This document shows, piece by piece, positions 1-46,953 of a stretch of 54,439 nucleotides of DNA. This DNA comes from a virus (Duplodnaviria; Caudoviricetes). The DNA is taken from positions 1 through 54,439 of the IMG/VR virus record IMGVR_UViG_3300025674_000054. The stretch is one strand, 5' to 3'. Both the position numbers and the translations under genes were made by a program. Numbering within the stretch: the stretch's first letter is position 1; the number at the start of each line of letters is the position of its first letter. A model generated the notes under the pieces. That model was not told where the DNA came from, did not search any database, and saw nothing but the letters and a program-made list of their open reading frames with translations.

Positions 1-56
1 ACTATAGGTGCCATTACTATATTGATTTGGTATAATTTTCTACATTGGTTATTTTA

Positions 57-318
57 TAGGGTCTAGTTCTACACAAGTGTGACCAACTAGGGTACAAACC
101 TAACCAACGGTTAGTTGACTAACTGTATTGGTTACGGTTCTATATGTTGTATATGACCCTAAACTGTGGAGTGACTGTTCTAAATGCAAGTGGGTGTTAA
201 CCCCTTTACACCGCGCTCCAACCCCTTTCGACTCGACGAGTATATATTTGTGAACACCGCAATGTTCATAGGTGATCATAACGTTTCACTTGGGGATACT
301 GCAATGAAACATTAGTGA
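57..318 (+). ncRNA. candidate structured non-coding RNA of unknown family (may extend past the window start)
   Basis: No ORF of 60 aa or more. Nested stems: 57-63/155-161, 64-68/85-89, 97-114/119-139, 167-173/214-220, 193-197/208-212, 249-256/263-270, 276-292/302-318. Several need G-U pairs that form only on the + strand. Confidence 0.6.
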
Positions 319-360
319 CATTGAATATTTAACAATTCAGTTAAAATAATGTATAAAAAA

Positions 361-392
361 TTTGGATACATGAGTGGGGGTTCGTATATTTA
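361..392 (+). promoter_or_regulatory. early/host-sigma-type promoter (TTTGG-N15-TTCGTATATTTA)
   Basis: One of 8 copies with identical spacing, each just upstream of a gene start; resembles the Bacteroidota TTTG-N19..21-TAnnTTTG consensus. Confidence 0.75.
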
Positions 393-411
393 CGTGTTGA
401 TAATTAAGGTT

Positions 412-510
412 ATGGTTGAATTAAATAAATTGATTGAGCAATACAATAACGATGAAATTACGTTTGATGAGTATCATGCGGGATTAGATCGTATTGGTTG
501 GATGAAATAA
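412..510 (+). CDS. small hypothetical protein, 32 aa (MVELNKLIEQYNNDEITFDEYHAGLDRIGWMK)
   Basis: Manually translated; directly follows the promoter at 361 and has the AAGGTTATG start context also seen at 3609 and 46983. Confidence 0.65.
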   Translation: MVELNKLIEQYNNDEITFDEYHAGLDRIGWMK

Positions 511-545
511 TAAATATCAGACATATTAAATGTTACGGTGGTAAT

Positions 546-614
546 CCTTACCGCGGTGACACTTCCTTACGTGTACCTTACTACCCCCTTATTACATACT
601 GAATGCATACTTAC
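546..614. repeat. short phased direct repeats (C/A)CTTA(C/T) in a non-coding, C-rich stretch
   Basis: Copies at 546, 565, 576, 587, 609; CATACT at 595 and 606; mostly 11-bp multiples apart. Confidence 0.4.
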
Positions 615-777
615 TACCACCGTTGGCCATACCGCCGTACGCACATATAATACTATAATACCACGCGCGTTGATGTCCATATAGCGTGTATATGCAAAGA
701 AAAGGGTGTAGGGCCATTTATGAATCGAACACGAATCTATACCTCGGATTGTATATACTTATATTTAGGAAATAATT

Positions 778-801
778 AGCCCCCAATTAAGGGGGCTTTT
801 T
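778..801 (+). terminator. rho-independent terminator, possibly bidirectional
   Basis: AGCCCCC-AATTAA-GGGGGCT followed by a T-run, between convergent transcription units. Confidence 0.8.
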
Positions 802-883
802 CCATTTAACGCCAAATGTTAAAAATAGTAAAATGGCAACCTTCTTTTTTTAAAACCTCTTTGGCGTCGAGGAAAATATATAC

Positions 884-1486
884 TTATTCTATATAATCTT
901 GGAATACTTTTACGGCATCATCCCAATACAAATAACCATTATCATTACCTATAATAAAACATAAAGTCCATCTACCTACATTTGTAGGATTATATGATGA
1001 ATGGAATGTACCTACGTTTACTAAACTTGGTTTGTTTGTGTTTGCTTCATATATTAATTTGCAATCTTCTTCTTTCAACCTTATACTTCTATGTTGTAAG
1101 TAAGTATCCTTTAAACCAGAAAGTGCTTGGGTATCTTCATTACTCAATTCATTATCAAATTGATCATTATATTCTTTTTCATGATCAAAATTTAAAGGTT
1201 CCCACCACCTAGTAGTCCCTTCAGGTGGCCCATAAGAAATATTAATTTTAACATGATTATCTAACTCAGAATTATCTATATGAATAGGAAGTGATTTACC
1301 CCCAGGGGTAAAAAACACTTCAGTATTTAAAATACGTAAATTAAATTTATTTATAAAACTCTCTATTTGAGGATCAACATGATAAGGAATATGTTGATGT
1401 TTTAACTCTTTTAATGGAATATTACATATAGGAGGTTTTGTAATTTTAAAAGGTAAATTAAGATATCTATGATATATATTATTCAT
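884..1486 (-). CDS. cupin/2OG-Fe(II) oxygenase-like protein
   Basis: HxD motif (PIHID) then LVNVGTFHSSYNP..RW. Start moved to the ATG at 1486 (MNNIYHRY), overlapping the upstream gene's stop; ORF track gives 1522. Confidence 0.6.
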   Translation of the reverse strand: MNNIYHRYLNLPFKITKPPICNIPLKELKHQHIPYHVDPQIESFINKFNLRILNTEVFFTPGGKSLPIHIDNSELDNHVKINISYGPPEGTTRWWEPLNFDHEKEYNDQFDNELSNEDTQALSGLKDTYLQHRSIRLKEEDCKLIYEANTNKPSLVNVGTFHSSYNPTNVGRWTLCFIIGNDNGYLYWDDAVKVFQDYIE

Positions 1487-2288
1487 CTTCTTCAATTTGA
1501 GGTTTAATATAACCCAAAGCAATACCTAACTCATTTTTTCTTTCCTCCGTTGTTTCCCTAGAGTAATATTCACTTACCATTTTCATTAGTTCCTCATCCG
1601 ATATTACATCATTAACAGTATTATTTCTTAGATTTTGAGTTTGCATTTTTGAAGCATATGGATAAAACTTATCCTCATCAAACACGCTTGATCTATTCCA
1701 CATCGGATTCTCCTCTATCGGTTTACAATCTGGATGCATCCAACCTTTCTTTTTAACTATTTCCTCATCCACATAATGTCCTATGCTAATCATGATACGA
1801 TCTTTTTCCCCTTCAATTTTAGTAGTACCATGTAAATTCAACCCAGCTAAACATAACCATACTTCATTTTCCTCCACACCTAATGTTTCTCCAGATATAA
1901 TAGGTAATCCACCTTTAGTAGGTTTTTGGATCATAAAATTAAATCTAACATTGATTTTACCTTTACGATTAGCATCTCTATGTGGGGTAACTTCTTTACC
2001 TTCAGATTGCCAACTAACCATATAACCAAATTCATCTAATGGGGTATCTCTATCTAAACCATAATGGTCTAAAATTATATGATCAATTTCCTCAATAGCA
2101 TCAACATCAATCCCTACATATCTAATTTGATCAAAATCTTCTTTCCAAAAATTCTTCGATCTCATATTATCGGGTTGATTTTCCGGAGGTGGTGGTAAAT
2201 ATGTCTCTCTATTTTCCTTAGAAGACATCCAATCTCGTATATACGTAGTTAATTCCTTGTCAATAAATAAGCCTTTTGGTTTACTCAA
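1479..2288 (-). CDS. 2OG-Fe(II) oxygenase superfamily protein
   Basis: PHRD (HxD), LHGTT (distal His), DRIMISIG (RxxxS co-substrate binding). Confidence 0.75.
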   Translation of the reverse strand: MSKPKGLFIDKELTTYIRDWMSSKENRETYLPPPPENQPDNMRSKNFWKEDFDQIRYVGIDVDAIEEIDHIILDHYGLDRDTPLDEFGYMVSWQSEGKEVTPHRDANRKGKINVRFNFMIQKPTKGGLPIISGETLGVEENEVWLCLAGLNLHGTTKIEGEKDRIMISIGHYVDEEIVKKKGWMHPDCKPIEENPMWNRSSVFDEDKFYPYASKMQTQNLRNNTVNDVISDEELMKMVSEYYSRETTEERKNELGIALGYIKPQIEEDE

Positions 2289-2607
2289 AATTTATATCTT
2301 CGTTATTAATAATTTTTTCTATATCCATAAAAACAGTTTTACTGTTTAATGTTCCTTTATAATACCCATTTTCAAAATAAGCTATAGTTGGGTAATACCT
2401 TATTGATCTAGGATATAACATACTTGATTTTGGGAAAGTTCTTGCATCCACATAAACCATAGGAAGTAACCCACTTATTTCCCTTAACATAGGCTTTATC
2501 TGCTTACACCCCTTACAAGTTCTAGAACCAAAAATCACCAATAATTTTGGTGCTGTTATAAAACTAGATAAATTATCCCTAGTTAATTCAATAAAATTTG
2601 TATTCAT
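2281..2607 (-). CDS. thioredoxin-like protein
   Basis: CKGC (CxxC) after a hydrophobic strand, cis-Pro loop YPT, 108 aa. Confidence 0.85.
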   Translation of the reverse strand: MNTNFIELTRDNLSSFITAPKLLVIFGSRTCKGCKQIKPMLREISGLLPMVYVDARTFPKSSMLYPRSIRYYPTIAYFENGYYKGTLNSKTVFMDIEKIINNEDINFE

Positions 2608-3015
2608 TTAATACCTATTTAAAAAATTAGGATCTTGCCCTAATGCCTTTAAATTACTTTTTAACTGTTGAATTTCATTAATATTATTTGAAACAGTACT
2701 TGTTAATGATTTATTACTATCCGAAACCTTACCGTTTATAACATTTATAAATTCTTCTAATTCGCTTACCCTTTTATTTATCTCAGAAACAGACTCATAT
2801 TGATCTTTTTCCATATTCGCCTGAATGTCATTTATCAAAACATTTACATCCTGAAAATCCTGTTTAAATTCCTCATATCTAATAGAGGAGATATTCGATT
2901 GTGATTGATATCGCGCCAGTAAATCCGTATGTGAAGACTTTACCATACGTAATAATTTAACCCCATATAATATTCCAACAGATAAAACCCCACTTATAAA
3001 GTATAATATTTCCAT
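2608..3015 (-). CDS. membrane-anchored coiled-coil hypothetical protein
   Basis: N-terminal hydrophobic helix then heptad-rich segment; first gene behind the minus-strand promoter. Confidence 0.75.
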   Translation of the reverse strand: MEILYFISGVLSVGILYGVKLLRMVKSSHTDLLARYQSQSNISSIRYEEFKQDFQDVNVLINDIQANMEKDQYESVSEINKRVSELEEFINVINGKVSDSNKSLTSTVSNNINEIQQLKSNLKALGQDPNFLNRY

Positions 3016-3031
3016 TTTTCTACATTTTGAT

Positions 3032-3063
3032 ACAATATACGAACATTTATTATTGGGTCCACA
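3032..3063 (-). promoter_or_regulatory. early/host-sigma-type promoter (TGTGG-N15-TTCGTATATTGT)
   Basis: Reverse-strand copy of the bipartite motif, 16 nt upstream of the ATG at 3015. Confidence 0.75.
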
Positions 3064-3149
3064 TAATTTTTGTAATCTTCTTGTAATCGAGTAGTATATA
3101 CGGATAGATAGATGTGGATATGTAGAAGAGAAAAGGACGTCTTTTTCAT

Positions 3150-3160
3150 ATATTTATAAT
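3150..3160 (+). promoter_or_regulatory. putative late promoter ATATTTATAAT
   Basis: Motif recurs just upstream of 11 gene starts, many structural. Confidence 0.7.
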
Positions 3161-3170
3161 AAAATTTAAA

Positions 3171-3527
3171 ATGGCATCTTACACAGCAGAACAATTATAT
3201 GGAGAAGGAACACCTATAGAGGCTTTAACTGGGGGAGTTTCGTATGTTTTTACTATTACAAATACCACTAGTACTGGATCCGCTTATTTTACGGTTGAAA
3301 CCGTTAAAAATTATAGTGGTTCAAATGCTGGGGCCCCTACTAATGCTTTAGGTTCTTATGCTTCATTTTCCGATATTGATCAAAATACTTTAATTACGTC
3401 ATCTTATATTTCTTCTGTTGTAGTACCTGGCGGTGGAGGAGTATACCAATTTACTCCTGATGCTACTGTTGCTGTTAGTTCTTCTATGTTAAGAGGGACT
3501 GGTGGGATATCTCTTACTATTTCTTAA
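3171..3527 (+). CDS. putative virion structural/decoration protein
   Basis: Ser/Thr/Gly-rich beta-type sequence with 4 [ST][GAS]S motifs; late-promoter motif upstream. Confidence 0.6.
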   Translation: MASYTAEQLYGEGTPIEALTGGVSYVFTITNTTSTGSAYFTVETVKNYSGSNAGAPTNALGSYASFSDIDQNTLITSSYISSVVVPGGGGVYQFTPDATVAVSSSMLRGTGGISLTIS

Positions 3528-3544
3528 AATCTCCTGCGTACTTA

Positions 3545-3577
3545 TTTGGCTACCCAGGAGATCGTTCGTATATTTAG
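3545..3577 (+). promoter_or_regulatory. early/host-sigma-type promoter
   Basis: TTTGGCTACCCAGG...TTCGTATATTTAG with conserved spacing. Confidence 0.8.
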
Positions 3578-3608
3578 CCATAGTTAAAAAGTTAAAATAA
3601 TAAAGGTT

Positions 3609-3953
3609 ATGACAAGTACAGAAGTTAAAAATTTCAGAAGTGATTTTCAAAATGCAGTTACTCAATTGCAAAACAAGTATGGTGTTAACATTAATACAGG
3701 TACTATTCGTTACACAGATAGTGAATTAAGATTTAAAGTTACCGCTCGTAAAGGTAAAGTTACTCCTAAATTAACAAAAGAAGCTTTTCAAGTAGGCGAT
3801 ACAGTTAAAATTAACCATAAAAGTGCTATTGGTAAGCAATTTAGGGTTGAGAAAATTATGACTAAAAATATTAGGGTTACAGAAATTAATCCCCCTAAAG
3901 GTCGTATTGCAGGTATGGTTAGAGTTTCACCAAGTTTATTAGAAAAACTTTAA
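3609..3953 (+). CDS. hypothetical protein with C-terminal SH3/KOW-like segment
   Basis: FQVGDTVKI...FRVEKIMTKNIRV...VRVSPSLL; own promoter. Confidence 0.75.
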   Translation: MTSTEVKNFRSDFQNAVTQLQNKYGVNINTGTIRYTDSELRFKVTARKGKVTPKLTKEAFQVGDTVKINHKSAIGKQFRVEKIMTKNIRVTEINPPKGRIAGMVRVSPSLLEKL

Positions 3954-6144: not shown

Positions 6145-6229
6145 ACCTTGGTGGCGGAATTGGTAGACGCGCCGGACTTAAAATCCTGTGGGCTGAAAGC
6201 TCGTGTGGGTTCGATTCCCACCCAAGGTA
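6145..6229 (+). tRNA. trnL: tRNA-Leu, anticodon UAA (CCA not encoded)
   Basis: Acceptor stem ACCTTGG/CCAAGGT, D-arm GGCGGAATTGGTAGACGC, anticodon loop CTTAAAA, long variable arm, T-loop TTCGATT, discriminator A. Confidence 0.95.
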
Positions 6230-16548: not shown

Positions 16549-19500
16549 ATGAAAGAACAAATAATAATCCAATCAGTATCACCAGATACTTTTGAATTTC
16601 AGGACTATTCTAGTAGTGATCAAACTTTAATTACTACTAATGAACTAGATACTGTATTTTCAGGTTCTATAGATTATATTGAAGCTTATGTTTTTGATGC
16701 TAATAAAGTATCAATAACTAGTGCTGTTCCTTTTACTAATTATAAAGTTACAGAAGGAAATGTTGTGTTAAATCCTTCTGAAGATTTAGAAAGATTTGGA
16801 TTTGATGTTGGTGAATATTTTATATCTTATGAATTTTATAGACCTAGATTAGGTTCAACATTAAACACTACATATTACATTAGTGAAATTAGTTCTGATA
16901 GGACTGAAATAAGATTAGATACAACAGTAATAGATAACGCTTTAGTAATAAGTTCAAGTTTAGAATTTATAGAATATAGAGATACTGCTGAATATTTTGT
17001 AGACTTTTTTCTTAATTTTGGTGATAACCAACAAATTATAGCTAATAACTTAGAATTAGATACTACAGATGAAAATAATCCTACTTTATTAGTTAAATTA
17101 TATGACCCACTCCCAAGTGAATTTGATTTAAAATCAGTTTGTAGTGTAGTAGAAGAAATTTCAACCCCACAATCTTATAAAGTTACATTCCCTCCTTTAG
17201 AATTTACTCAAGATGATTTTACTTATATATCGGGACCAAATTATAGCCTAAATATTAAAGGACAATCAGGTACTCCGGGTATGGATTTTTCTTATTCAAC
17301 CCTTATATCATCTGATGTAACTAGTTCTACTAATCAAATTGATAGTTTATTAAATAAAAAAGAAATTGAGATAAGTGTAGATTATGAAGATTATAATGAT
17401 TTTATTTATTTTTCATCTGCATATACTAGACTTCAAAACTTTTATTATAAAGTAGGATTAATTCAATCTGCAAGCGCCCAATTAGGATCTATTACTTCAG
17501 CAACAACAGGATCAGTAGTTTATAGTGCTAGCCAAGCAACATTATCTAATATAGTTTCTGATACTATTAAAAACTTTGATGGATATGAGTATTTCCTTTA
17601 CTTTAATAGTGGTTCACAATATTCTTATCCAAAATCTAATAGTGAACCTCCATATATTTTATATCCAACAGGGAGTACAGAAGCTTTAAATTGGTTAGGA
17701 TCTACTGATGCTAGCAGTGCTTATTATGGAGGGCAAGCAGTATCTGCTTCTAATTATGATGAAAATAACCAAGATTCATTATATTATGCTATCCCTGAAT
17801 ATTTGAGAAGCGATCCCCAAAATGCTAAATATGAATTATTTGTTGATATGGTTGGTCAACATTATGATAATATATGGCTTTATACTAAAAATATTACTAC
17901 AAAATTTGATGCGGATAATAGATTAAATTATGGTATTTCCAAAGACATGGTTGCAGATGCAATTAGAGATTTTGGTGTAAAACTTTATTCTAATAATTTT
18001 AATACTGATGATTTATATGTAGCCTTTTTAGGATTAACTCCATCTGGTAGTTCATTCCCTTTCCCATATATAACAGGTAGTACACCCGCAGATACTGGGT
18101 ATGAGTATGTAAATTCTCAAATATCTGCTTCAAATGATATAATCCCACTAGACGATATAAATAAACGTTTATATAAACGAATTTACCATAATATACCATA
18201 TTTACTAAAAACTAAAGGTACAGTAGCTGGTTTAAGAGCATTAATTACATCCTATGGAATCCCAGATACAATTTTAAGAATAAATGAATTTGGAGGTAAA
18301 GATAGAAATAATTCTCAAGATTGGGATTTAAAACAAGATTTTTATAATGTAGGACTAAATACAACTAGTTCAGCATTTACATCTTCATTTGTACTAAACA
18401 GTGCTTTTTCTTCATCAATCATTCCTCCTTCATCGGATCCAACTCCAATTGTTTCACGACCAGGAGCTATGCAATTTAGATTTAAAACTAATGGTATTCC
18501 ATCAGCTTCAAATTCGCCAACAACTCAATCTTTCTTTGAAACTGATTCAACTAGTACAGTTGCTATGGGCATCGAATATAATGAAGCATTATTAGTTACA
18601 GGTTCATATTCTGGTTCAGTCGAAAGTCAATATAAAAATTATGGAACTATAAAATTTTGGCCTAATATTGATACTAACCCTACTAACTATGCCTCTTTAT
18701 ATTTACCATTTTGGGATGGGAATTGGTGGTCAGTACAAGTAAATAGAAATTCAGAAAATGCAACATTTACTTTACTTGCAGCTAATAAAATAGGTGAAAA
18801 CTTAGGGTTTACTGGAAGTGATACCATTAGTGCTGATTTAGGTCCTTGGAATAGTTCTGATTCTATACTTTGGTTACCTCAAACTTATAAACAATTTGCA
18901 GGAATATATTATTTCCCTCTTACAGGTTCACTTCAAGAAGTAAGATATTATACAGAAGCTATAAGTGAAAGTATTTTCCATGATTACGCAATGAATCCAT
19001 ATTCATTTGAAGGAAATAGTACTAATAGTGCCCCTGATAAATTAGCCTTCAGACTATCGTTAGGAACATTATTAAATACAGGATCATATGAAGATTCAAT
19101 TCATCCTAAAATAACTGGATCATGGATTACTACTTCTTCTTTTAATGGACAAAGCTCAGCATCATTTTCAGGAACACCAACTTGGTTAAATAATGTAGAA
19201 GATATTTATCTTGACCAAACACCTTCAGGAATAAGAAATAGAGTTACAGATAAAATTCAAACTGAAGAATTAATATTACCTGAAGGAGATACTTTATCTG
19301 CTTATAGATCAGTCCAACAAAACTCTTATTCAAGTGGTAGTTTTACTCCTAGTGTTAATTATTTAGAAGTAGCTTTTTCACCCCAAGATCAAATTAATGA
19401 TGATATAACAGCCCAAATGGGTTACTTTAATTTAGGAGATTATATAGGAGACCCTAGATTAATATCATCATCAGCTACAAGTTATCCTGACTTAGATTTA

Positions 19501-22500
19501 TTAAGGGATGCTTATTTTGAAAAGTATATTACAAATTATGATTTAACTGATTTTATTAGGTTAATTAAATTCTTTGACAATTCATTATTTAAAATGATAG
19601 AAGATTTTACACCTGCAAGAACTAGTTTATCATCTGGGGTAGTAATAAAACAACATTTATTAGAAAGAAATAGACAACGTCCTGCAATTGTAACATCTTC
19701 ATTTGAACAATTTTCGGGATCAGTTAAAAATTTACCAAAAGATTACAGTACAGGTTCTTCAGATCAACCACAATATGCAACCTCAGGATCTGCTATTTAT
19801 GTATTTAAAGGAGGAACAGGTGGTTCATTTGAGCCTTTTAATGGGTTACAAACTTACCCATCAGGTACTTTAGGAATTGGTCCTGATAATAGATATTTCT
19901 TAACTCAAAGTTGGGAAGAATCATGGATGACTTTTTCGGGATCTGCTCCTATTCAAAGAGTTGATCAAAGAGAATTTTATAATGGGGAATTTAGTGGGTC
20001 AATTATACCAGTAGGAATAGAAGATATTTGTAGTGCTTATTTTAAACCTGGAATGCAAGAATATAGGTATGTTCCTGTATTTTGGAGTGCAGATGGCAAT
20101 AATTCAACATTAACTATTAGTGAATCAGAATTTTTATCTCCTACAAACCAACCTCCAACAGGGTATGTTTGGTTTTGGAATAATGGAGATAATATTGTTT
20201 ACATTAAACTATCATTAGAAAGTTATAATGGTATTAATATTTCAACTTTTATACAAAATGTAGAATATGTTACCTTCCAGTTTACAGCTCCAGTAGATAG
20301 TAATGGAGAATTTATAGTTCCAAATACACCCCAAACTTTTTACTTAGAATCTATTGTAATACAACCTGGGACATCAGCAGTCCCTCCAGGGGTTGGAGAT
20401 GCATTAGCATATACAGTACCAGGAATTTCTTCAACAGTAGTTTCCTCTGCAGATGCTTCATTTTATAATTTTAATTTTTCAGCAAGTGGGGATTATCAAT
20501 GGCATGCTACACAAAACACAGCTACAGATCCTAACCCAGTATTAGATACTGGAATTTCTGCCTCTGTACCACAAGGTTATTTTCCGTTAACAGCAGATTA
20601 CCCAACTGAATCTTTCTTTAGAGGATGGGCTTCATCTAATTTTTATACAAATGGTACTTATAATTCCTATAATGGAATTTTATATGATCCTTTAGATAAT
20701 TTCAATACAGGATCTCATGAAAGAGATAATACAGATACTACTTTATTAAGTGGTGTTGATCCTGCAAGTAATTTCCCATGGTTTATGAATGCCGGAGTTG
20801 AAGGTGAAGGATTAAGTTGGATACAAGTCCCATCAGAATCATTCCTAGATTATGCTAATATACCTGATTCAACAGTAGGACCTGTTGCTACAAATAATTA
20901 TTTTAATATAGCTTGGACAAGCCAAAGCTCAGCTGAATCCCCAGCAATACAAGGAGTAAATTATTATTATAATGCTAGTAATAATGCTATTTATATGTCT
21001 GGTTCAGAATATCAAAATGAACTTAAAATTATAAATCCATTATATTCTAGTAGTTTAATGTTTAAAATTAGTGGAACTAGCCAACTTTCAAGCACTGCTA
21101 CATCATATACTCCATTAGGTCAAACTAATTTAGTTATTCCTATTGACCCATCAAGAGGTCAAGAATTATGGGTTTACAGAGGAGAATCATTTGCCCCAGT
21201 TGCAGACTCAAATGCTTGGAGATATAATAGATATATCCATAGACCTTATAAGGTATACTACCTAACAGAAACAGGATCTGGTTCTCCATCTGATCCTTAT
21301 GGTGAATATGATCCTATGGTAAGATTACCTTTAGCACCTAATCCACTTGATAGACCTACTCCATATACTACTATATGGCATGGTGAAACTGTAACTATGT
21401 TAGGTACTCAAGGAGATTCAATTCAAAGAGCATACCAAAAACCATTAAATGCAACAGAAACCCTTCCATCACTTGAAATGGTATCTGGTAGTTTTAATGT
21501 ATTTAGTAGTTTAAGACAAGTAAAACCATTTATATTTACAACTTATAAAATAGTAAAACCAAACCCACCAGTAGGAGGTGCTATTGGTAGTGGATCATTT
21601 GTTTCAATTTCACAATCAGATGGAACACCATTTGCAAGATTACAAATGTTCCAATACCAAAACCCAAATTTAATTCTTTGTCAATACCAATTATATATGG
21701 TTCACCAAGTTGGTGGAGGATCTACTACTATAAATTATTTTGATGGTGATGGAATTCAACGAAGTGAACAAGTTAATGCTGGAGAATTTTTTGCATGGTG
21801 TGTTGATGGTTTATTAGTTGCCCCATATCCTGGTGGTCAATATTACCAAATAGACTCAACTTCCGGAGGTGGGCTTTTAGTTGGAGATTTTTATGATTCA
21901 CCTATATGGAATTCATTTAGCCCACCAGCGGAATCAACTTTTGAAAATTGTAACCAATATTGTTTATCAGAAACAGATGGTAGTTCAGGTACACTAAGTG
22001 TTACATCAGAAAACACTCAACCTTATTTTTATTATCCTCCTTTCAAAACATTAAATGCTCCAACTGTAGGTCATCAAAATGGTCAGTATAATATTCCATA
22101 TGGTGGAAACTTTGATGGACTAAATACTTCTTCCTTATCACTAACAACAGGAACTTCTCCATTTGGTAATAATTTTCAACCACAAGGGTTAGTATTCCCT
22201 CCTGGTAGTTATATTTTTACTATGAGTGCATTTGATACAAATCAAATGGAAGGTGGAAAAACTGAATTTGGTTTATGGACAACTTATGGAGATTATGCTC
22301 AATATGATTTACAACATCTTGATGGATCAGGAGTAAGTTCTTATACCTTTAATTATACAGATCAACAAGGCAACTCAGTAAATAATACTATTGGAGAAGA
22401 TAATGAAGCTTACGTATTTGCACAATTAGGTACACCAAATGTATCAGGAATTTTTGATCCAGATTATGTTGTAACTAGTTCAATCTCAACTCGTTATGCT

Positions 22501-25422
22501 TCAGGTGTAGCTTTACCAAGTTCTTTTGCTACTAAAGTAGTTGATGCCTATTTAGTTTATTCACAATCGGCTTCAGGTAGTTTAGATGGTGGATACTTAT
22601 TTGATGTAGTTCCTACTTTAACTAATATATCATTTACAGCTTCAGTTGTAGTGAGTTCATTTACAGATGCTCAATCAGCCCTTTATGGTAATGCTATATA
22701 TGGAACAGATGAATATGGAGGTGGAAATAGTGGAGGAGGAACAACATGGACAACAGCATCTATACACCTATATTCTGGATCGGCTAATAATTTCCCAAAT
22801 AAAATGCCTGTAATTGGCGATGGTAATATTTTAGCTTCTACTAGTTCTTATAGTCTAACCCACCATGAAGGAGAAAGAATAACTTTAATGGCAGATTTCC
22901 CTGCTGGTAGCTTTGAATATAATGAAGTATTAAAATTAGCTTTAAAAGTTGAAAGTGGGTCAAATGCATCTTCTGTTGTACAAAATTCATTAGTAGTAAC
23001 AGAATATAGTATGAGCTTTTCAAGTTCATATGATCCAACAATAGATCCTTCTATCCCAACTGTATTTGATAGTGATAATAACTTTGCATTAGCTTATGAT
23101 TGCCAACCTTTATTAAATAACTACCAGGACGGAAGATTAAATCTTAGATTACAAGATATAGATTATAATGATGGAATTTTAACACCTAGTAATTTCCAAC
23201 AAATTATAGAATTTTCAGCTTCTAGAGCATCTGTACCTGAATCTAATTATACAGCTATAAGATCAAGAGGACCAAGGTATATTGGAAAACAAAGCACATC
23301 AGCAATAATAAACCAGTGGAGTGCCGGGGATGCAGGTTCATATGGTAAATTACCTAATGTAGAAATTGCAAGAGCATACACGACATATTTTAATGCTCTT
23401 TCAGACCCTTATCCTTTATTAAATAATAAAGTACAATATAGTTTACAATATTTAATTGGACAAGATGGAGATATTTCTCAACCAAAATTATCTAATACTT
23501 CTATTTATAATATACAAGGAACTTTTGATGAGTGGGGAATAAATAGAGTTGTTGAAAATCCTCCTTATACATCAAGTGGGGTTGTTTCATTAGTAAACCC
23601 TGATGATAATAATTTATTACCATTACAAGGAGAAGTTCCAATATATAAAATAGGACAAAGATTAGTACCTGTAATTTATACCCAACAATCAGGAGTATTT
23701 CCTTTTATGATACCTGGAGAAACTGCAGGTGTGTTAACAGCATCTATTCAATTAATAGGTAATGAACCTGTTGATGTAAATATTCAACCAGAATTTAATA
23801 ATTATACTTCTACGGCTATTGGAGAAAGTTCTCAATCTGGTAACCAAAGTACTTTTGGTCCTGTAACATTTAAAGCAAATAATGTCACACCGTCATCAGA
23901 TGGAAACTCCTCAGCAACATCCCCAACAAGGAATGTTACAGCATCTGTTACTAATACAGGAACAGGCTTACCTGTGTATCAAACTTCTACTGGTGCCTCA
24001 CATGGATTTTTAACAATTCCAGTTACAGATGGTACAGCATTTGCTGCAGACACTGGTATTACCCCTGGTACTGGTAATGATTTATCACAACCTTATGATT
24101 TAAACTTTAGTTTAGGTATTGATACAACACCACTAACATATAGAGTACAAACCACAAACCCAAATAAATCAAACAACTTCAATACAAATCCAAATGTTGG
24201 GTCCTTAAATGTTATACTTGATAGAAAAGAAAATTATGCATCTGGTGTTTTTGCAGGAGCAAGACTCCAAAATGTTAAAGTAACATTTACTAATTATTAT
24301 TCTGCAATAGGTGGTTCAAATAGACAAGTTACATTTGATTATGGGTCAGCAGCATCACAATTTGTAGAAGTAAACGCTGGTTCAGGAACAGGAGGTGTCA
24401 CAGTTAGGTTTAATACAGATATTATTGAAGAAATTATAACAGATGTAGGTGAAAGTGCAAAGGCAGTATCAGATGGTGGTGGTTTATTAAAACAAAGATG
24501 GACAATATCAGCTAAATTAAGACAAACAGGTGGTGGAGGATTTTCCGCATATCCTGCTAATCCTTTAAAACAAGGACAACAATTTAGAATAGAAGCATCC
24601 GGAGATTTTATAACAGGAGCTTCACAATTTAATGCTAATTTAAATCCTAAATTTTTCCCATCAGCTCAAGATGGTTCAGCTTTTTATAAATTAGAGCTAC
24701 AAGGTAGATCTAGTAACCCTATTGAAGATGCAATAGCACCATTCTGGGAATTTTCGGGAAGTTCTCAATCTACTTTAATTTGTGTTTCACCTCAATTAAA
24801 TAAAGCATACGGTAGAGATTTTAAACAAAAAGATTTAATTTATACCGCAAGTCAAAATAAAGATTTCCCTGGTGGGTTAGAACCATTCTATACTTCTTTT
24901 CCAACTGTACAAGAAAATTGGAGTGTACAACAAGGAGATCAAATTAGATTTAAGAATGACGAGGAACATGCTTATACTATAACTAATGTAACAACCCCAG
25001 AAGCAAATACGGATAGTAACACTTGGGTTGATAATTTCCCTTCATTAATAATTGAAGTTGATGGGGATATTCCTACAAGTTTTGATCAAAGATATACAGC
25101 TTCTTTAAATATTTTAGGTAGAGCTCTTAACCCATTATTTAGTCAATCTTTATTTGATACTGGCCCAGAAACGGTAGTTCCCCAATATGAAGACATATTA
25201 GTTGATGGAGCAAGAATTGTAAGAGGGTTAGATTTCTTTGTACTTAGAAGATTTAAAGATGATGCTGGGGTTATAATAATGGATCAACAAGTTCCTTATA
25301 ATAATCCACCTAATACAGGTTCATCAGCTGGATTTATATTTCCACCATACCCAACGGAACCTTTATCAGTAGAACCAGATAATTTATTAGAAGACCTTAG
25401 AAATAATAAACTAATTGAATAA
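16549..25422 (+). CDS. very large baseplate wedge-like structural protein, 2957 aa
   Basis: IPYLLKTKGTVAGLRALITSYGIP resembles gp7/P2-gpI-type wedge motifs; long S/T/G-rich beta region; operon context. Confidence 0.7.
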   Translation: MKEQIIIQSVSPDTFEFQDYSSSDQTLITTNELDTVFSGSIDYIEAYVFDANKVSITSAVPFTNYKVTEGNVVLNPSEDLERFGFDVGEYFISYEFYRPRLGSTLNTTYYISEISSDRTEIRLDTTVIDNALVISSSLEFIEYRDTAEYFVDFFLNFGDNQQIIANNLELDTTDENNPTLLVKLYDPLPSEFDLKSVCSVVEEISTPQSYKVTFPPLEFTQDDFTYISGPNYSLNIKGQSGTPGMDFSYSTLISSDVTSSTNQIDSLLNKKEIEISVDYEDYNDFIYFSSAYTRLQNFYYKVGLIQSASAQLGSITSATTGSVVYSASQATLSNIVSDTIKNFDGYEYFLYFNSGSQYSYPKSNSEPPYILYPTGSTEALNWLGSTDASSAYYGGQAVSASNYDENNQDSLYYAIPEYLRSDPQNAKYELFVDMVGQHYDNIWLYTKNITTKFDADNRLNYGISKDMVADAIRDFGVKLYSNNFNTDDLYVAFLGLTPSGSSFPFPYITGSTPADTGYEYVNSQISASNDIIPLDDINKRLYKRIYHNIPYLLKTKGTVAGLRALITSYGIPDTILRINEFGGKDRNNSQDWDLKQDFYNVGLNTTSSAFTSSFVLNSAFSSSIIPPSSDPTPIVSRPGAMQFRFKTNGIPSASNSPTTQSFFETDSTSTVAMGIEYNEALLVTGSYSGSVESQYKNYGTIKFWPNIDTNPTNYASLYLPFWDGNWWSVQVNRNSENATFTLLAANKIGENLGFTGSDTISADLGPWNSSDSILWLPQTYKQFAGIYYFPLTGSLQEVRYYTEAISESIFHDYAMNPYSFEGNSTNSAPDKLAFRLSLGTLLNTGSYEDSIHPKITGSWITTSSFNGQSSASFSGTPTWLNNVEDIYLDQTPSGIRNRVTDKIQTEELILPEGDTLSAYRSVQQNSYSSGSFTPSVNYLEVAFSPQDQINDDITAQMGYFNLGDYIGDPRLISSSATSYPDLDLLRDAYFEKYITNYDLTDFIRLIKFFDNSLFKMIEDFTPARTSLSSGVVIKQHLLERNRQRPAIVTSSFEQFSGSVKNLPKDYSTGSSDQPQYATSGSAIYVFKGGTGGSFEPFNGLQTYPSGTLGIGPDNRYFLTQSWEESWMTFSGSAPIQRVDQREFYNGEFSGSIIPVGIEDICSAYFKPGMQEYRYVPVFWSADGNNSTLTISESEFLSPTNQPPTGYVWFWNNGDNIVYIKLSLESYNGINISTFIQNVEYVTFQFTAPVDSNGEFIVPNTPQTFYLESIVIQPGTSAVPPGVGDALAYTVPGISSTVVSSADASFYNFNFSASGDYQWHATQNTATDPNPVLDTGISASVPQGYFPLTADYPTESFFRGWASSNFYTNGTYNSYNGILYDPLDNFNTGSHERDNTDTTLLSGVDPASNFPWFMNAGVEGEGLSWIQVPSESFLDYANIPDSTVGPVATNNYFNIAWTSQSSAESPAIQGVNYYYNASNNAIYMSGSEYQNELKIINPLYSSSLMFKISGTSQLSSTATSYTPLGQTNLVIPIDPSRGQELWVYRGESFAPVADSNAWRYNRYIHRPYKVYYLTETGSGSPSDPYGEYDPMVRLPLAPNPLDRPTPYTTIWHGETVTMLGTQGDSIQRAYQKPLNATETLPSLEMVSGSFNVFSSLRQVKPFIFTTYKIVKPNPPVGGAIGSGSFVSISQSDGTPFARLQMFQYQNPNLILCQYQLYMVHQVGGGSTTINYFDGDGIQRSEQVNAGEFFAWCVDGLLVAPYPGGQYYQIDSTSGGGLLVGDFYDSPIWNSFSPPAESTFENCNQYCLSETDGSSGTLSVTSENTQPYFYYPPFKTLNAPTVGHQNGQYNIPYGGNFDGLNTSSLSLTTGTSPFGNNFQPQGLVFPPGSYIFTMSAFDTNQMEGGKTEFGLWTTYGDYAQYDLQHLDGSGVSSYTFNYTDQQGNSVNNTIGEDNEAYVFAQLGTPNVSGIFDPDYVVTSSISTRYASGVALPSSFATKVVDAYLVYSQSASGSLDGGYLFDVVPTLTNISFTASVVVSSFTDAQSALYGNAIYGTDEYGGGNSGGGTTWTTASIHLYSGSANNFPNKMPVIGDGNILASTSSYSLTHHEGERITLMADFPAGSFEYNEVLKLALKVESGSNASSVVQNSLVVTEYSMSFSSSYDPTIDPSIPTVFDSDNNFALAYDCQPLLNNYQDGRLNLRLQDIDYNDGILTPSNFQQIIEFSASRASVPESNYTAIRSRGPRYIGKQSTSAIINQWSAGDAGSYGKLPNVEIARAYTTYFNALSDPYPLLNNKVQYSLQYLIGQDGDISQPKLSNTSIYNIQGTFDEWGINRVVENPPYTSSGVVSLVNPDDNNLLPLQGEVPIYKIGQRLVPVIYTQQSGVFPFMIPGETAGVLTASIQLIGNEPVDVNIQPEFNNYTSTAIGESSQSGNQSTFGPVTFKANNVTPSSDGNSSATSPTRNVTASVTNTGTGLPVYQTSTGASHGFLTIPVTDGTAFAADTGITPGTGNDLSQPYDLNFSLGIDTTPLTYRVQTTNPNKSNNFNTNPNVGSLNVILDRKENYASGVFAGARLQNVKVTFTNYYSAIGGSNRQVTFDYGSAASQFVEVNAGSGTGGVTVRFNTDIIEEIITDVGESAKAVSDGGGLLKQRWTISAKLRQTGGGGFSAYPANPLKQGQQFRIEASGDFITGASQFNANLNPKFFPSAQDGSAFYKLELQGRSSNPIEDAIAPFWEFSGSSQSTLICVSPQLNKAYGRDFKQKDLIYTASQNKDFPGGLEPFYTSFPTVQENWSVQQGDQIRFKNDEEHAYTITNVTTPEANTDSNTWVDNFPSLIIEVDGDIPTSFDQRYTASLNILGRALNPLFSQSLFDTGPETVVPQYEDILVDGARIVRGLDFFVLRRFKDDAGVIIMDQQVPYNNPPNTGSSAGFIFPPYPTEPLSVEPDNLLEDLRNNKLIE

Positions 25423-29335: not shown

Positions 29336-32300
29336 ATGGCCAAACAGTTAGAAAATATTTTTGACCCAAATGTTGATGAAATATCACAAGGGTTTACTAT
29401 TAATTCTTGGCATGTATCTCAATCCGTAGATGCATTTACAGCTCAAGATGCTTATGATATTTCAATATCAGGTTCTTTTAATAATACAGGTTCAGCAGGA
29501 TTTTCAGGAAGTGTATTTACCCCAGATTTACCAGACACAACAGCAGATTTTGAAGTAGTTGTTGTAGATAACACTTCAAAAGAATTAAAGAAAACAAACT
29601 TATTAAATGCCGGTTCTTCAGGTACAAGTGGTTCTTCAGGAACTTCAGGTAGCTCAGGTACATCAGGTTCATCAGGAACAAGCGGATCAAGTGGAACAAG
29701 TGGATCTTCAGGTAATAGTGGTTCTTCAGGTACATCAGGTGCGGATGGAGATAGATATGCTACTACTTCAGGTACATCAGAAACATTAGGAGATGGTAAT
29801 CAATGTATAACTGTTGAAACAGGACTAGCTTATACTGCAGGTCAAGAAATGATAATGGCCAACAGTGATACGGCTCTTCAAACAGCTTTAGTTGTTAGTT
29901 ACGACTCAGTTACTGGAATTTTATGTTATGGAGCTATTATACTTCAAATTGGTTCTGGAACTTATAGTAGTTGGCAAGTTAACTTATCAGGAAATGTAGC
30001 AGGTTCAAGTGGTACAAGTGGTTCATCAGGTACTTCAGGAACTTCTGGCTCATCAGGTCAACAAGGAGATCCAGGTACCTCAGGTTCATCGGGTACATCA
30101 GGTTCATCAGGAACAAGCGGATCAAGTGGTACCTCAGGATCTTCAGGTGAATCTGATAAATATGCAACAACTTCAGGTACATCATTTACTTTAGGTGGAA
30201 ATGGTACTATTACTGTAGAAACAGATTTAGCTTATACGCCTGCTCAATCTATTATTATTGTATATGATGTTAATAATTTTCAAGAATGTGAGGTTATAAC
30301 CTATAATAGTTCAACTGGTGAATTGGTATTTGGCTCACCTACAAGAACAGTAGGATCAGGAACATATTCAACTTGGACAGTTAACTTAGATGGTGCATCT
30401 GGTGGAGATGGTTCTTCTGGTACAAGTGGATCAAGTGGAACTTCAGGTTCTTCTGGTACAGCAGGTACAAGTGGCTCAAGCGGTACATCAGGAACATCTG
30501 GTTCTTCAGGAGTAAGTGGTTCTTCTGGTTCATCCGGAACATCAGGTTCAAGCGGTACGTCAGGTTCATCTGGCACTTCAGGTAGTTCAGGTAGTTCAGG
30601 AACAAGTGGTTCAAGTGGTAACTCTGGTACTTCAGGTTCTTCAGGAACTTCAGGCTCAAGTGGTGACTCAGGTACAAGTGGTTCTTCAGGTACATCAGGT
30701 ACATCAGGTACAAGTGGAACTAGCGGAACTTCTGGTTCATCTGGAACTTCAGGATCTTCAGGAACATCTGGTTCTTCAGGTACTTCTGGAACAGATGGAA
30801 CATCAGGTTCATCAGGAACAAGTGGTACATCAGGTTCAAGTGGTACTTCAGGAACTTCTGGAACTTCAGGAACAAGTGGATCAAGTGGAACTTCAGGTAG
30901 TTCAGGTGAAGATGGAACTTCGGGTAGTTCAGGAACAAGTGGTAGTTCAGGAACAAGTGGAACAAGTGGAACTAGTGGTTCTAGTGGAACAAGTGGTACA
31001 TCAGGTTCAAGTGGAACATCTGGAAGTTCTGGTTCAAGTGGAACTAGCGGAACTAGTGGTACAAGCGGAAGCTCAGGTACTAGTGGTACATCTGGAACTT
31101 CAGGTACATCAGGTTCATCAGGAACTAGTGGAACTTCAGGTTCAAGCGGTACAAGTGGTACTTCAGGAACTTCTGGAACAAGTGGAACTTCAGGTTCATC
31201 TGGCTCTTCAGGTACATCAGGAAATAGTGGTACAAGTGGATCGAGTGGTAATTCTGGAACTTCAGGTTCAAGTGGTACTTCTGGTTCATCTGGGACGTCA
31301 GGTACATCCGGTTCTTCTGGAACATCAGGAACAAGTGGTACATCTGGAACTTCGGGTAGTTCAGGAGAAGATGGTACTTCAGGTTCAAGTGGTACAAGCG
31401 GTTCAAGTGGTACATCAGACAAGTACGCAACAACTTCAGGTACATCATTTACTTTAGGGAATAGTGGGACAATAACAGTAGAAACAGGCTTAGCTTATAC
31501 AACAGCACAATCTATTATTATTGTATATGATATTGATAACTTCCAAGAATGTGAAGTTACATCTTATAATAGTGCAACAGGAGAACTTTCGTTTGATAGT
31601 CCTACTAGAACAGTAGGTTCAGGTACGTATTCAACATGGGAAGTAAACCTTGATGGTGCTTCAGGTGGAGATGGTAGTTCAGGTACAAGTGGTACTTCAG
31701 GTACATCAGGTTCAAGTGGTACAAGTGGAACATCCGGTACTAGTGGTTCATCAGGAACAAGTGGAACATCAGGTTCATCAGGAACAAGTGGTACATCAGG
31801 AACATCAGGATCATCAGGTAATTCAGGAACTTCAGGAAGTTCAGGTACAAGTGGTACTTCAGGTACATCAGGTACTTCTGGTACTAGTGGTACAAGTGGA
31901 TCTTCAGGTACATCAGGTACTTCAGGTTCATCGGGAACAAGTGGTACAAGTGGAACAAGTGGTTCAAGTGGAAATTCTGGAACATCTGGTTCATCAGGTA
32001 CATCAGGTTCAAGTGGAAATTCTGGAACATCTGGTTCATCAGGTACAAGTGGTACAAGTGGAACATCAGGTACAAGTGGATCAAGTGGTACTAGCGGTAG
32101 TTCTGGAGAAGACGGTACTTCAGGATCTTCAGGAACAAGTGGAAGTTCAGGTACAAGTGGTTCATCAGGAACAAATGGTACTTCTGGTACTTCAGGTTCA
32201 TCTGGAACAAGTGGTACAAGTGGTTCTTCTGGAACATCTGGGACATCTGGAACTAGTGGTTCTTCAGGAACTTCTGGTACATCAGGTTCAAGTGGAACTA

Positions 32301-46921: not shown

Positions 46922-46953
46922 TTTGGCTACCCAAGTAACCTTTCGTATATTTA
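46922..46953 (+). promoter_or_regulatory. early/host-sigma-type promoter
   Basis: TTTGGCTACCCAAG...TTCGTATATTTA, nearly identical to the copy at 3545. Confidence 0.8.

Follow-up and report, generated by a model that had tools for sequence, protein, structure and literature searches.

Two short hairpins and a conserved C-rich block in a non-coding spacer upstream of a host-type promoter in uncultured myophages

Introduction

Phages of the T4 type carry, between small genes, elements that join an early promoter to a terminator stem-loop; these PeSLs (early promoter and stem-loop elements) are described in two reports (PMC2839356; PMC4122927). Rho-dependent sites are placed between the immediate-early and delayed-early genes of T4 in a further report, and rut sites are characterized there as unstructured, sometimes C-rich, and accessible in intergenic RNA (PMC2988021). 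Here, we analyze the beginning of IMG/VR virus record IMGVR_UViG_3300025674_000054 (Caudoviricetes), which belongs to an uncultured marine phage, and we refer to the whole stretch of 54,439 nucleotides (nt) as the window. A preliminary description made from the letters alone had presented window positions 57 to 318 as a multi-stem structured non-coding RNA (ncRNA).

Comparison with homologous loci shows that positions 57 to 318 are the last 10 nt of a membrane-peptide gene plus most of a 295-nt spacer (67 to 360). The spacer is non-coding and is conserved in two clades of uncultured myophages, of which the nearest cultured relatives have Flavobacterium sp. LMO8 as their host, and both clades retain a pair of short plus-strand hairpins directly downstream of the stop codon. 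We tentatively infer, with a probability of roughly 0.4, that the region, as a terminator-promoter spacer of PeSL-like type, carries signals that set the 3' end of the upstream early transcript or control its termination.

Results

The spacer is found on ten contigs that form two clades

The window is linear and comprises the whole IMG/VR record, which is AT-rich and estimated to be 34% complete; the region under study lies at its very start. It encodes a tRNA-Leu(UAA) gene (6145 to 6229) and baseplate genes, and the best match of its baseplate wedge protein is in Flavobacterium phage vB_FspM_immuto, a 160-kb myophage (45.5% identity, 97% query coverage). The spacer was found on 10 contigs, five in the window's own clade (the window, L104, L105, L106, and G008) and five in a second clade, referred to here as the L108 clade (L107, L108, G001, G002, and G003). 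One exact 22-mer retrieved L104, L105, and L106 from the metagenome collection. L104 is 99.76% identical to window positions 1 to 3706 and extends 453 nt farther upstream. L106 matches positions 1 to 312 at 96.8% identity and stops there, and L105 is 78.4% identical over positions 1 to 613, with no gap in positions 1 to 395. L107 and L108 were reached through the gene for a 112-amino-acid (aa) protein upstream of the spacer in L106, and G001, G002, and G003 were recovered from IMG/VR with a 22-position pattern of the spacer's core (197 to 232) that was derived from five contigs. Six further records came from a pattern for a second conserved element farther downstream (see below); among them, G008 contains the part of the spacer from about window position 169 on.

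The spacer occurs once per genome, and both the 57 to 318 part and the core are single in each record. The genes around it are mosaic, the flanks of the two clades are barely alignable, and identity to L105 is itself a mosaic that ranges from 20/20 down to 9/20 per 20-nt bin. The core pattern has no match in the GTDB genome contigs (185,579 species genomes), and an exact 20-mer from positions 213 to 232 has none in IMG/VR. A pattern of two copies of AACCCCTTT, a short repeat in the core, separated by a gap finds 97 stretches in IMG/VR, none of them with extended similarity. A distant blastn search of positions 1 to 900 against public phage genomes gave no match, and the relatives reached via neighboring minus-strand genes (L002 and L100 to L103) are distant phages without a homologous spacer. 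Contigs of three data sets (DNA runs X2 and X4 and metagenome contig L106) end at positions 312 to 322, and these shared ends suggest a strain-level junction. The next 32 nt (320 to 351) are not repeated in any homologous locus examined.

Two short hairpins are kept across both clades

The features of the spacer and of the gene that precedes it are as follows.

1 to 66, plus strand: 3' end of the membrane-peptide gene (21 codons and the stop codon TAG at 64 to 66), established from the upstream sequence in L104, the translation, and conservation at the protein level
57 to 161, plus strand: first domain of the preliminary description, with a closing stem (57-63/155-161) that is specific to the window's clade
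88 to 102, plus strand: hairpin H1, UAGG/CCUA (88-91/99-102) with the conserved loop GUACAAA, from an eight-sequence alignment
97 to 139, plus strand: irregular hairpin of about 18 bp with loop UUGA, of which only the inner stem, H2, is common to both clades
141 to 153, plus strand: small hairpin UAUAU-GUU-GUAUA, in the window's clade only
171 to 247, plus strand: conserved sequence block, C-rich and G-poor, with core 197 to 232 (TTAACCCnTTnnCAnnGnnnnCCAnnCCnnnTCGAC) and two AACCCCTTT copies
245 to 274, plus strand: weakly kept hairpin, in the window's clade only and not alignable as a hairpin in the L108 clade
276 to 318, plus strand: non-conserved hairpin; of its 17 pairs, 8 are broken in one or more cells and none is compensatory, and 8 are broken in L105

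When eight sequences from both clades were folded together with RNAalifold (window positions 64 to 232), only three helices were kept: H1, H2 (109-114/119-124), and an invariant GGU/ACC mini-stem (194-196/201-203). Of the 104 cells in these helices, 97.1% are paired, versus 82.4% in shuffled alignments (0 of 500 as high), and their covariation score is 0.503, versus 0.235 in the shuffles (0 of 500) and 0.04 to 0.16 when the partners are slid. H1 (alignment columns 25-28/36-39) is paired in all 32 cells of the eight sequences, and three of its four pairs are changed on both sides; H2 (columns 46-51/56-61) is paired in 45 of 48 cells, with three of its six pairs changed on both sides. Both hairpins keep their positions across the clades while their sequences differ. 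The preliminary description had taken the G-U pairs to favor the plus strand, and this is borne out in H1 and H2, where 13 of the 80 cells are G.U and 77 of 80 pair on the plus strand versus the 64 of 80 that would pair on the minus strand. The G114A change opens the closing pair of H2 in L106 and in run X2.

Around H1 and H2, the structure drawn in the preliminary description is less well kept among relatives. Within the window's clade, some pairing on the plus strand withstands sequence change: there are four compensatory pairs, compared with 1.2 ± 0.9 in shuffles (5 of 500 as high), and three of them lie in the first domain (59/159, 99/137, and 110/123), while many other pairs are broken in L105. 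In the closing stem of the first domain, G59-C159 is replaced by A-U in L105 and C63-G155 is broken in both L106 and L105; the L108 clade closes this domain by a different stem, CAUAURAC/GUURUGUG. The lower stem of the 97 to 139 hairpin is largely lost in L105 (−3.5 versus −18.6 kcal/mol). The 141 to 153 hairpin changes at two pairs in L105 (U143-A151 to C-G and U145.G149 to C-G) and has no counterpart in the L108 clade. Compared with 100 column shuffles, the alignment fold of positions 57 to 161 has a z score of −4.4 on the plus strand (0 of 100 as low) and −5.5 on the minus strand, scores that lean on two near-identical rows, and the fold of positions 162 to 318 has z scores of −1.1 (plus) and +1.0 (minus).

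A C-rich block follows the hairpins

Over positions 171 to 237, the window differs from L105 by a single base change, and in the flanks identity drops to 9 to 13 of 20. Twenty-two positions of the core are fixed across both clades in the contigs that the pattern finds; G008, with eight changes in the core, misses the strict 22-position pattern. Of the 36 nt of the core, 17 are C and 3 are G. Over positions 181 to 260, GC skew runs from −0.25 to −0.44, with −0.44 at positions 201 to 260. A G-rich tract precedes the block, and L108 (skew of −0.47) and G003 (−0.33) show the same change from G-rich to C-rich. There is no conserved pairing in the block beyond the 3-bp mini-stem. In composition, and in composition only, the block resembles a rut-type site, an untranslated, C-rich, G-poor tract with weak structure that precedes pause sites.

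The two AACCCCTTT copies (199 to 207 and 220 to 228) and the GGGG at 292 to 295 are present as the preliminary description stated. The direct repeat is lost in the L108 clade, which has AACCCATTC and ACGCCTCTT at these places, and with up to one mismatch AACCCCTTT is not enriched in the window (18 found versus 21.9 expected). The core lies 129 nt from the downstream promoter in the window, compared with about 175 nt in L108. Directly before the block is a hypervariable patch (164 to 170) at which L106 differs at 6 of 7 bases and L105 and G008 also differ.

Two pairings of the core and a boxA-like motif were considered and rejected. A 6+3-bp duplex between the core and the G-rich GGGUGUAGGG of the second element is possible in the window, but ACACC is CCAGC in L108 and the partner is invariant. 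For a pairing between the core and GGGGG in the promoter spacer, G008, L105, and L108 provide no covariation. The sequence CGCUCCAAC, which recalls a lambda boxA, is lost in the L108 clade.

The first 10 nt belong to a membrane-peptide gene, and the remainder is non-coding

The complete upstream gene has 33 codons (MKRNWLKSVTWLTIGAITILIWYNFLHWLFYRV) and begins 36 nt before the window. Its product has one hydrophobic stretch, a single membrane helix, and is conserved as a protein in L105 (91%), L107 (36%), and G002 (30%), making four lineages. At the DNA level, the gene has 8 changes in 102 nt relative to L105, against 78% identity overall. The gene spans positions 57 to 66, and therefore the 5' arm of the previously proposed closing stem is coding; the view of positions 57 to 318 as purely RNA sequence does not hold for the last three codons and stop (57 to 66), and the non-coding part begins at position 67. 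A promoter-like site at 8 to 36 was rejected as the promoter of an RNA: it falls within the gene, and L105 carries an altered second hexamer. No conserved promoter or terminator bounding an RNA of the extent of 57 to 318 was found.

In the stretches upstream of the window (L104, 1 to 417; L106, 1259 to 2067; L105, 664 to 1332, minus strand), a gene for a basic peptide of 42 to 43 aa overlaps the membrane-peptide gene by ATGA, and there is also the conserved gene for the 112-aa protein, which is Cys-rich (CxxC ... CxxC). L107 and G002 have two membrane-peptide genes in tandem. In L108, an extra module (1990 to 2062) follows the membrane-peptide gene and contains two strong hairpins (z score of −2.44), the first of which is followed by a U-rich run and is terminator-like.

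The preliminary description had reported no open reading frame (ORF) here. Three are in fact listed, at 100 to 279 on the minus strand (59 aa) and at 128 to 253 (41 aa) and 184 to 315 (43 aa) on the plus strand. Substitutions relative to L105 are spread evenly over the three codon phases (10/11/9 in 67 to 183, 12/13/13 in 100 to 279, and 9/7/8 in 238 to 318). The plus-strand ORF at 184 to 315 has lost its ATG in 7 of 10 contigs (L105, G008, and all five of the L108 clade) and has an in-frame TAG in three of the five L108-clade contigs (L107, G002, and G003), and no homolog of it was found among proteins of 23 to 76 aa. The window, L106, and L105 share an open minus-strand ORF with its ATG aligned, as does another lineage, P0003 (79 aa, 58% identity), of which only a predicted protein is known. 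This ORF is interrupted by TAG in G008, and all five L108-clade contigs lack its start and have a stop immediately before the core; two of its seven library matches are real relatives, and the other five are multi-stretch repeat proteins. On the basis of the missing three-base rhythm, the lost starts, and the in-frame stops in relatives, we take positions 67 to 360 to be non-coding.

The fold of the window's own sequence overstates conserved structure

The stems and loops drawn in the preliminary description can all be found in the minimum free energy (MFE) or centroid fold: TAGGGTC (57-63) with GACCCTA (155-161), the 97 to 139 hairpin with its TTGA loop, the second-domain stem TGGAGTG (167-173) with CGCTCCA (214-220), and the hairpins at 249 to 270 and 276 to 318. 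The region is also richer in G+C than the genes, as had been noted (0.425 in positions 101 to 300 versus about 0.25 to 0.33 in the genes to the right). The energy of the fold is not exceptional. The MFE of positions 57 to 318 is −71.5 kcal/mol (z score of −1.54), a value that 13 of 200 dinucleotide shuffles equal or better, and the minus strand is similar (z score of −1.55, 17 of 200). By itself, the first domain (57 to 161) reaches a z score of −2.69 on both strands (1 of 200 and 2 of 200 shuffles), and the hairpin at 93 to 145 reaches −3.80 (1 of 200).

The second domain and the proposed tertiary contact do not survive comparison. With G008 included, the second-domain stems have no compensatory pair, and 83.9% of their cells are paired, versus 83.6% in shuffles, of which 247 of 500 score as high. 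Of the seven pairs in the closing stem 167-173/214-220, five are broken somewhere, and 73% of the stem's cells are paired. In the 245 to 274 hairpin, 93% of cells are paired, with three one-sided wobble changes, two pairs broken in L105, and a 10-nt loop insertion in G008. The pseudoknot proposed between AACCCC and GGGG (292 to 295) is contradicted by L105, in which GGGG is GAGG. A single large multi-domain RNA is likewise not upheld, since the closing stem of the first domain differs per clade and the second-domain stems are without covariation. No intrinsic terminator (hairpin followed by a U-run) was detected in positions 57 to 318, and all three terminator-like sites in positions 1 to 1000 are at 778 to 797.

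The absence of a known RNA family was confirmed: at gathering score, the only Rfam (release 15) match in the window is the tRNA at 6145 to 6229, and none is to tmRNA, RNase P, group I introns, or known phage RNAs. For positions 1 to 900 at an E value of ≤10, the sole match that overlaps 57 to 318 is rli52, with 20.2 bits versus a threshold of 70, and six homologous loci at an E value of ≤1 gave only terminator-driven or snoRNA chance matches. ARAGORN found no transfer-messenger RNA. A reading of TTCGAC as a tRNA remnant or T-loop was rejected, the flanking stems being non-complementary and matching no tRNA model. A single-sequence multi-stem fold in a G+C-richer spacer thus overstates structure; the pairing that survives comparison amounts to only about 30 of 262 nt.

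A reused host-type promoter begins the next unit

Downstream of the hairpins, the following features make up the next unit.

361 to 392, plus strand: promoter cassette, TTTGG[A/C]TAC-N13-TTCGTATATTTA, of the Bacteroidota sigma-A type (TTTG, 20 nt, TAnnTTTa)
412 to 510, plus strand: small gene of 32 codons, MVELNKLIEQYNNDEITFDEYHAGLDRIGWMK, which begins at 412 and not at the listed 349
640 to 800 (also 531 to 606), plus strand: second non-coding element, more widely conserved than the first and most strongly at about 640 to 770
778 to 797, both strands: two-way intrinsic terminator, from a terminator scan, ending the second element

The sequence expected of an early promoter, TTTG-N20-TATATTTA, lies at 361 to 392, outside positions 57 to 318. 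The consensus given for the −7 box of Flavobacterium is TAnnTTTG (PMC9723704). The cassette occurs at 361 to 392, 3545 to 3576, and 46922 to 46953, each time in an intergenic position just upstream of a small gene, and relatives have several copies (G001 and G003) or one extra copy each (G002, G004, and G005). Its TTTG we take to be the −33 part of a Bacteroidota sigma-A promoter. At loose contig ends, other sequences are joined inside the cassette.

The start of the small gene is placed at 412 because L105 has a stop in the frame of the listed start (349) and yet keeps xYNNxEIxxDEY from the ATG aligned with 412. Compared with G008, the gene has three synonymous and three replacement changes. 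A second C-rich tract follows it, with skew down to −0.67 at positions 561 to 620.

The second element was recovered by pattern at nine IMG/VR loci and is found in G004 to G007 without the first. The consensus fold of nine sequences is a long hairpin, AUAUAGCGUGUAUAU/GUAUAUACUUAUAU, around GGUGUAG/CUACACC. It is biased to the plus strand (z score of −2.29, versus −0.81 on the minus strand, in the window; −4.31 in G001) and lacks compensatory changes because its stems are invariant. It could be a small RNA or a conserved 3' untranslated region. Metagenome depth is raised over it, with many variant contigs. Contigs from RNA runs (X9 and X16) cover parts of positions 376 to 865, including 640 to 865, and genes, and none covers 1 to 375; these are strandless, contig-level data that are silent on expression. 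Between the terminator and the stop codon of a minus-strand gene (802 to 884), identity to L107, L108, and G008 is about 85 to 90%, above that of the neighboring genes, with no obvious ORF.

Elsewhere in the window are a 4070-codon ORF (29336 to 41548) with 9-nt tandem repeats (Gly-X-X-like, Ser/Thr-rich) and internal repeats of 1.2 to 2.7 kb and, beside it, a 2957-codon ORF (16549 to 25422); their products are probably tail fiber or surface proteins.

Discussion

The order of elements at this locus is a stop codon, plus-strand hairpins, an untranslated C-rich tract, clade-specific hairpins, a reused host-type promoter, and the next start codon, and both flanking small genes are encoded on the plus strand. 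Since this is the layout expected of a terminator or attenuator with an early promoter behind it, placed between small variable genes, we read the conserved hairpins and block as RNA-level 3'-end signals rather than as a free-standing RNA. H1 and H2 would act on the upstream early transcript as 3'-end, attenuator, or processing/stability signals, the C-rich tract might be a Rho loading site (rut-like) or a site for another single-strand binder, and the clade-specific downstream hairpins might be sites of pausing. Acting jointly, they would halt or limit read-through ahead of the promoter at 361 to 392, from which the next unit (the gene at 412 to 510, its long 3' region, and the terminator at 778 to 797) would start. 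Functionally, the arrangement would amount to an elongated form of the PeSLs of T4-type phages.

Several observations weigh against this proposal. No transcript ends were seen, all four runs compared being contigs, and the terminator scan found no combination of hairpin and U-run within 57 to 318. H1 and H2 are about 220 nt from the promoter, far beyond the spacing in described PeSLs, and the 57 to 318 part is single in the genome. The homologous domain folds near shuffle level in L105 (z score of −0.68), L107 (−0.45), and L108 (−0.48). The consensus fold of the L108 clade alone has no compensatory pairs, with 452 and 311 of 500 shuffles scoring as high, and since there is no covariation within this clade, most of the double changes are single events between the two clades. 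Finally, the 22 fixed positions suggest a sequence-specific partner of the block, and rut sites are usually conserved in composition, not position by position.

Those fixed positions, with free ones between them, would also suit a site that acts as DNA and is bound by a phage or host protein (a regulator, or one for replication or recombination), the hairpins being incidental. So would the two AACCCCTTT copies, which are 21 bp apart in the window's clade, and the assemblies of three data sets that break at 312 to 322 among mosaic neighbors. We nevertheless consider this unlikely: the direct repeat gives way to AACCCATTC and ACGCCTCTT in the other clade, the motif is not repeated elsewhere in the window, the promoter distance varies between 129 nt and about 175 nt, and the strand-asymmetric excess of C over G and the G.U pairs point to RNA.

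The spacer could instead be largely neutral, its blocks of identity left by recent recombination and its hairpins a chance product of AT-rich sequence. The mosaic identity to L105, the shuffle-level fold energies of three homologs, and the lack of covariation in the L108 clade are all compatible with this explanation. It is unlikely in view of a core that is recognizable in 10 contigs of two clades with barely alignable flanks, the absence of indels relative to L105 in positions 1 to 395 at 78% identity, and the two hairpins that keep their position while their sequence differs.

The preliminary description favored an independent, multi-domain structured ncRNA of about 260 nt acting in trans. 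The first domain does beat shuffles in the window, four compensatory pairs exist in its clade, the alignment fold of 57 to 161 has a low z score, G+C is raised, and an RNA that matches no known family would be new. We consider such an RNA unlikely in the extent proposed, given that the whole stretch has a z score of only −1.54, that the second domain has an alignment-fold z score of −1.1 and no covariation, that the closing stems differ by clade and the first 10 nt are coding, that no conserved bounding promoter or terminator was found, and that the z score of −4.4 is dominated by two near-identical rows.

It is improbable that H1, H2, and the C-rich block are a new cis-acting, nut/put-like switch of antitermination or termination, with RNA polymerase or Rho as its target, that times passage from the immediate-early small genes to the next unit; to our knowledge, no nut/put-like element has been described in Flavobacteriia phages. 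The resemblance to lambda nut boxA/boxB and HK022 put consists of a hairpin with a conserved loop and covarying stem and an adjoining conserved linear sequence, on an early transcript and ahead of later genes, and the two adjacent hairpins recall put in particular. In contrast to those sites, the boxA-like CGCUCCAAC is lost in the other clade, nothing N-like or related to Nus factors was found, and Rfam gives no match.

In type I toxin-antitoxin (TA) systems such as hok/sok, too, structured RNA lies downstream of a gene for a small hydrophobic peptide. In a module of this kind here, the toxin would be the peptide, and the structured region behind it would serve as a regulatory 3' part of the mRNA, an antisense target, or both. 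The 33-aa peptide with its single membrane helix (whose toxicity is putative), the unusual DNA conservation of its gene, a closing stem that covers the stop codon region, and a promoter-like site on the minus strand (268 to 239) fit such a module. We regard it as very improbable: the spacer follows different membrane-peptide genes in different contigs and is not tied to one toxin, the site at 268 to 239 is of the sigma-70 and not the host type and is not conserved, and no antisense RNA or conserved antisense promoter was found, the RNA contigs being strandless. Least probable of all is a small protein gene at 100 to 279 (minus strand, 59 aa) or 184 to 315 (plus strand, 43 aa), for which the aligned minus-strand ATGs, two inter-clade indels of 3 and 6 nt, and some synonymous-looking core changes in the minus frame are outweighed by the even substitution phases, the stops and missing starts in relatives, and the scarcity of genuine homologs described above.

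If the reading as 3'-end or termination-control signals is correct, this locus would give an initial picture of the boundaries of early units in large marine Flavobacteriia phages: the genome would reuse host-type promoter cassettes, with RNA-level stop or metering signals ahead of each, and these signals would be conserved though the genes around them are swapped. In practical terms, the analysis provides defined, testable elements (the H1 loop, the H2 stem, and the C-rich block) and a better-conserved second element nearby.

Rho-dependent terminators, among them lambda tR1 and those that separate the immediate-early from the delayed-early genes of T4, combine a rut site with a pause site. 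The spacer resembles such terminators in having an untranslated, C-rich, G-poor tract with little conserved structure, close behind a stop codon of an early transcript and with hairpins downstream; it differs in that its positional sequence conservation is above what is expected of rut. Compared with PeSLs, as these are described in the reports cited above, only the promoter at 361 to 392 is repeated (three copies in the window), with the 57 to 318 part present once per genome, the hairpins, a candidate terminator, lie about 220 nt from the promoter with a conserved C-rich block between, and the promoter fits the Bacteroidota consensus rather than that of sigma-70. The likeness to the same descriptions lies in an intergenic cassette between small variable genes, with stem-loops after the upstream stop codon, some of them containing G.U pairs, a genome-repeated promoter of the host sigma type, a ribosome-binding site and start codon at the 3' end, and mosaic neighbors with adjacent assembly breaks.

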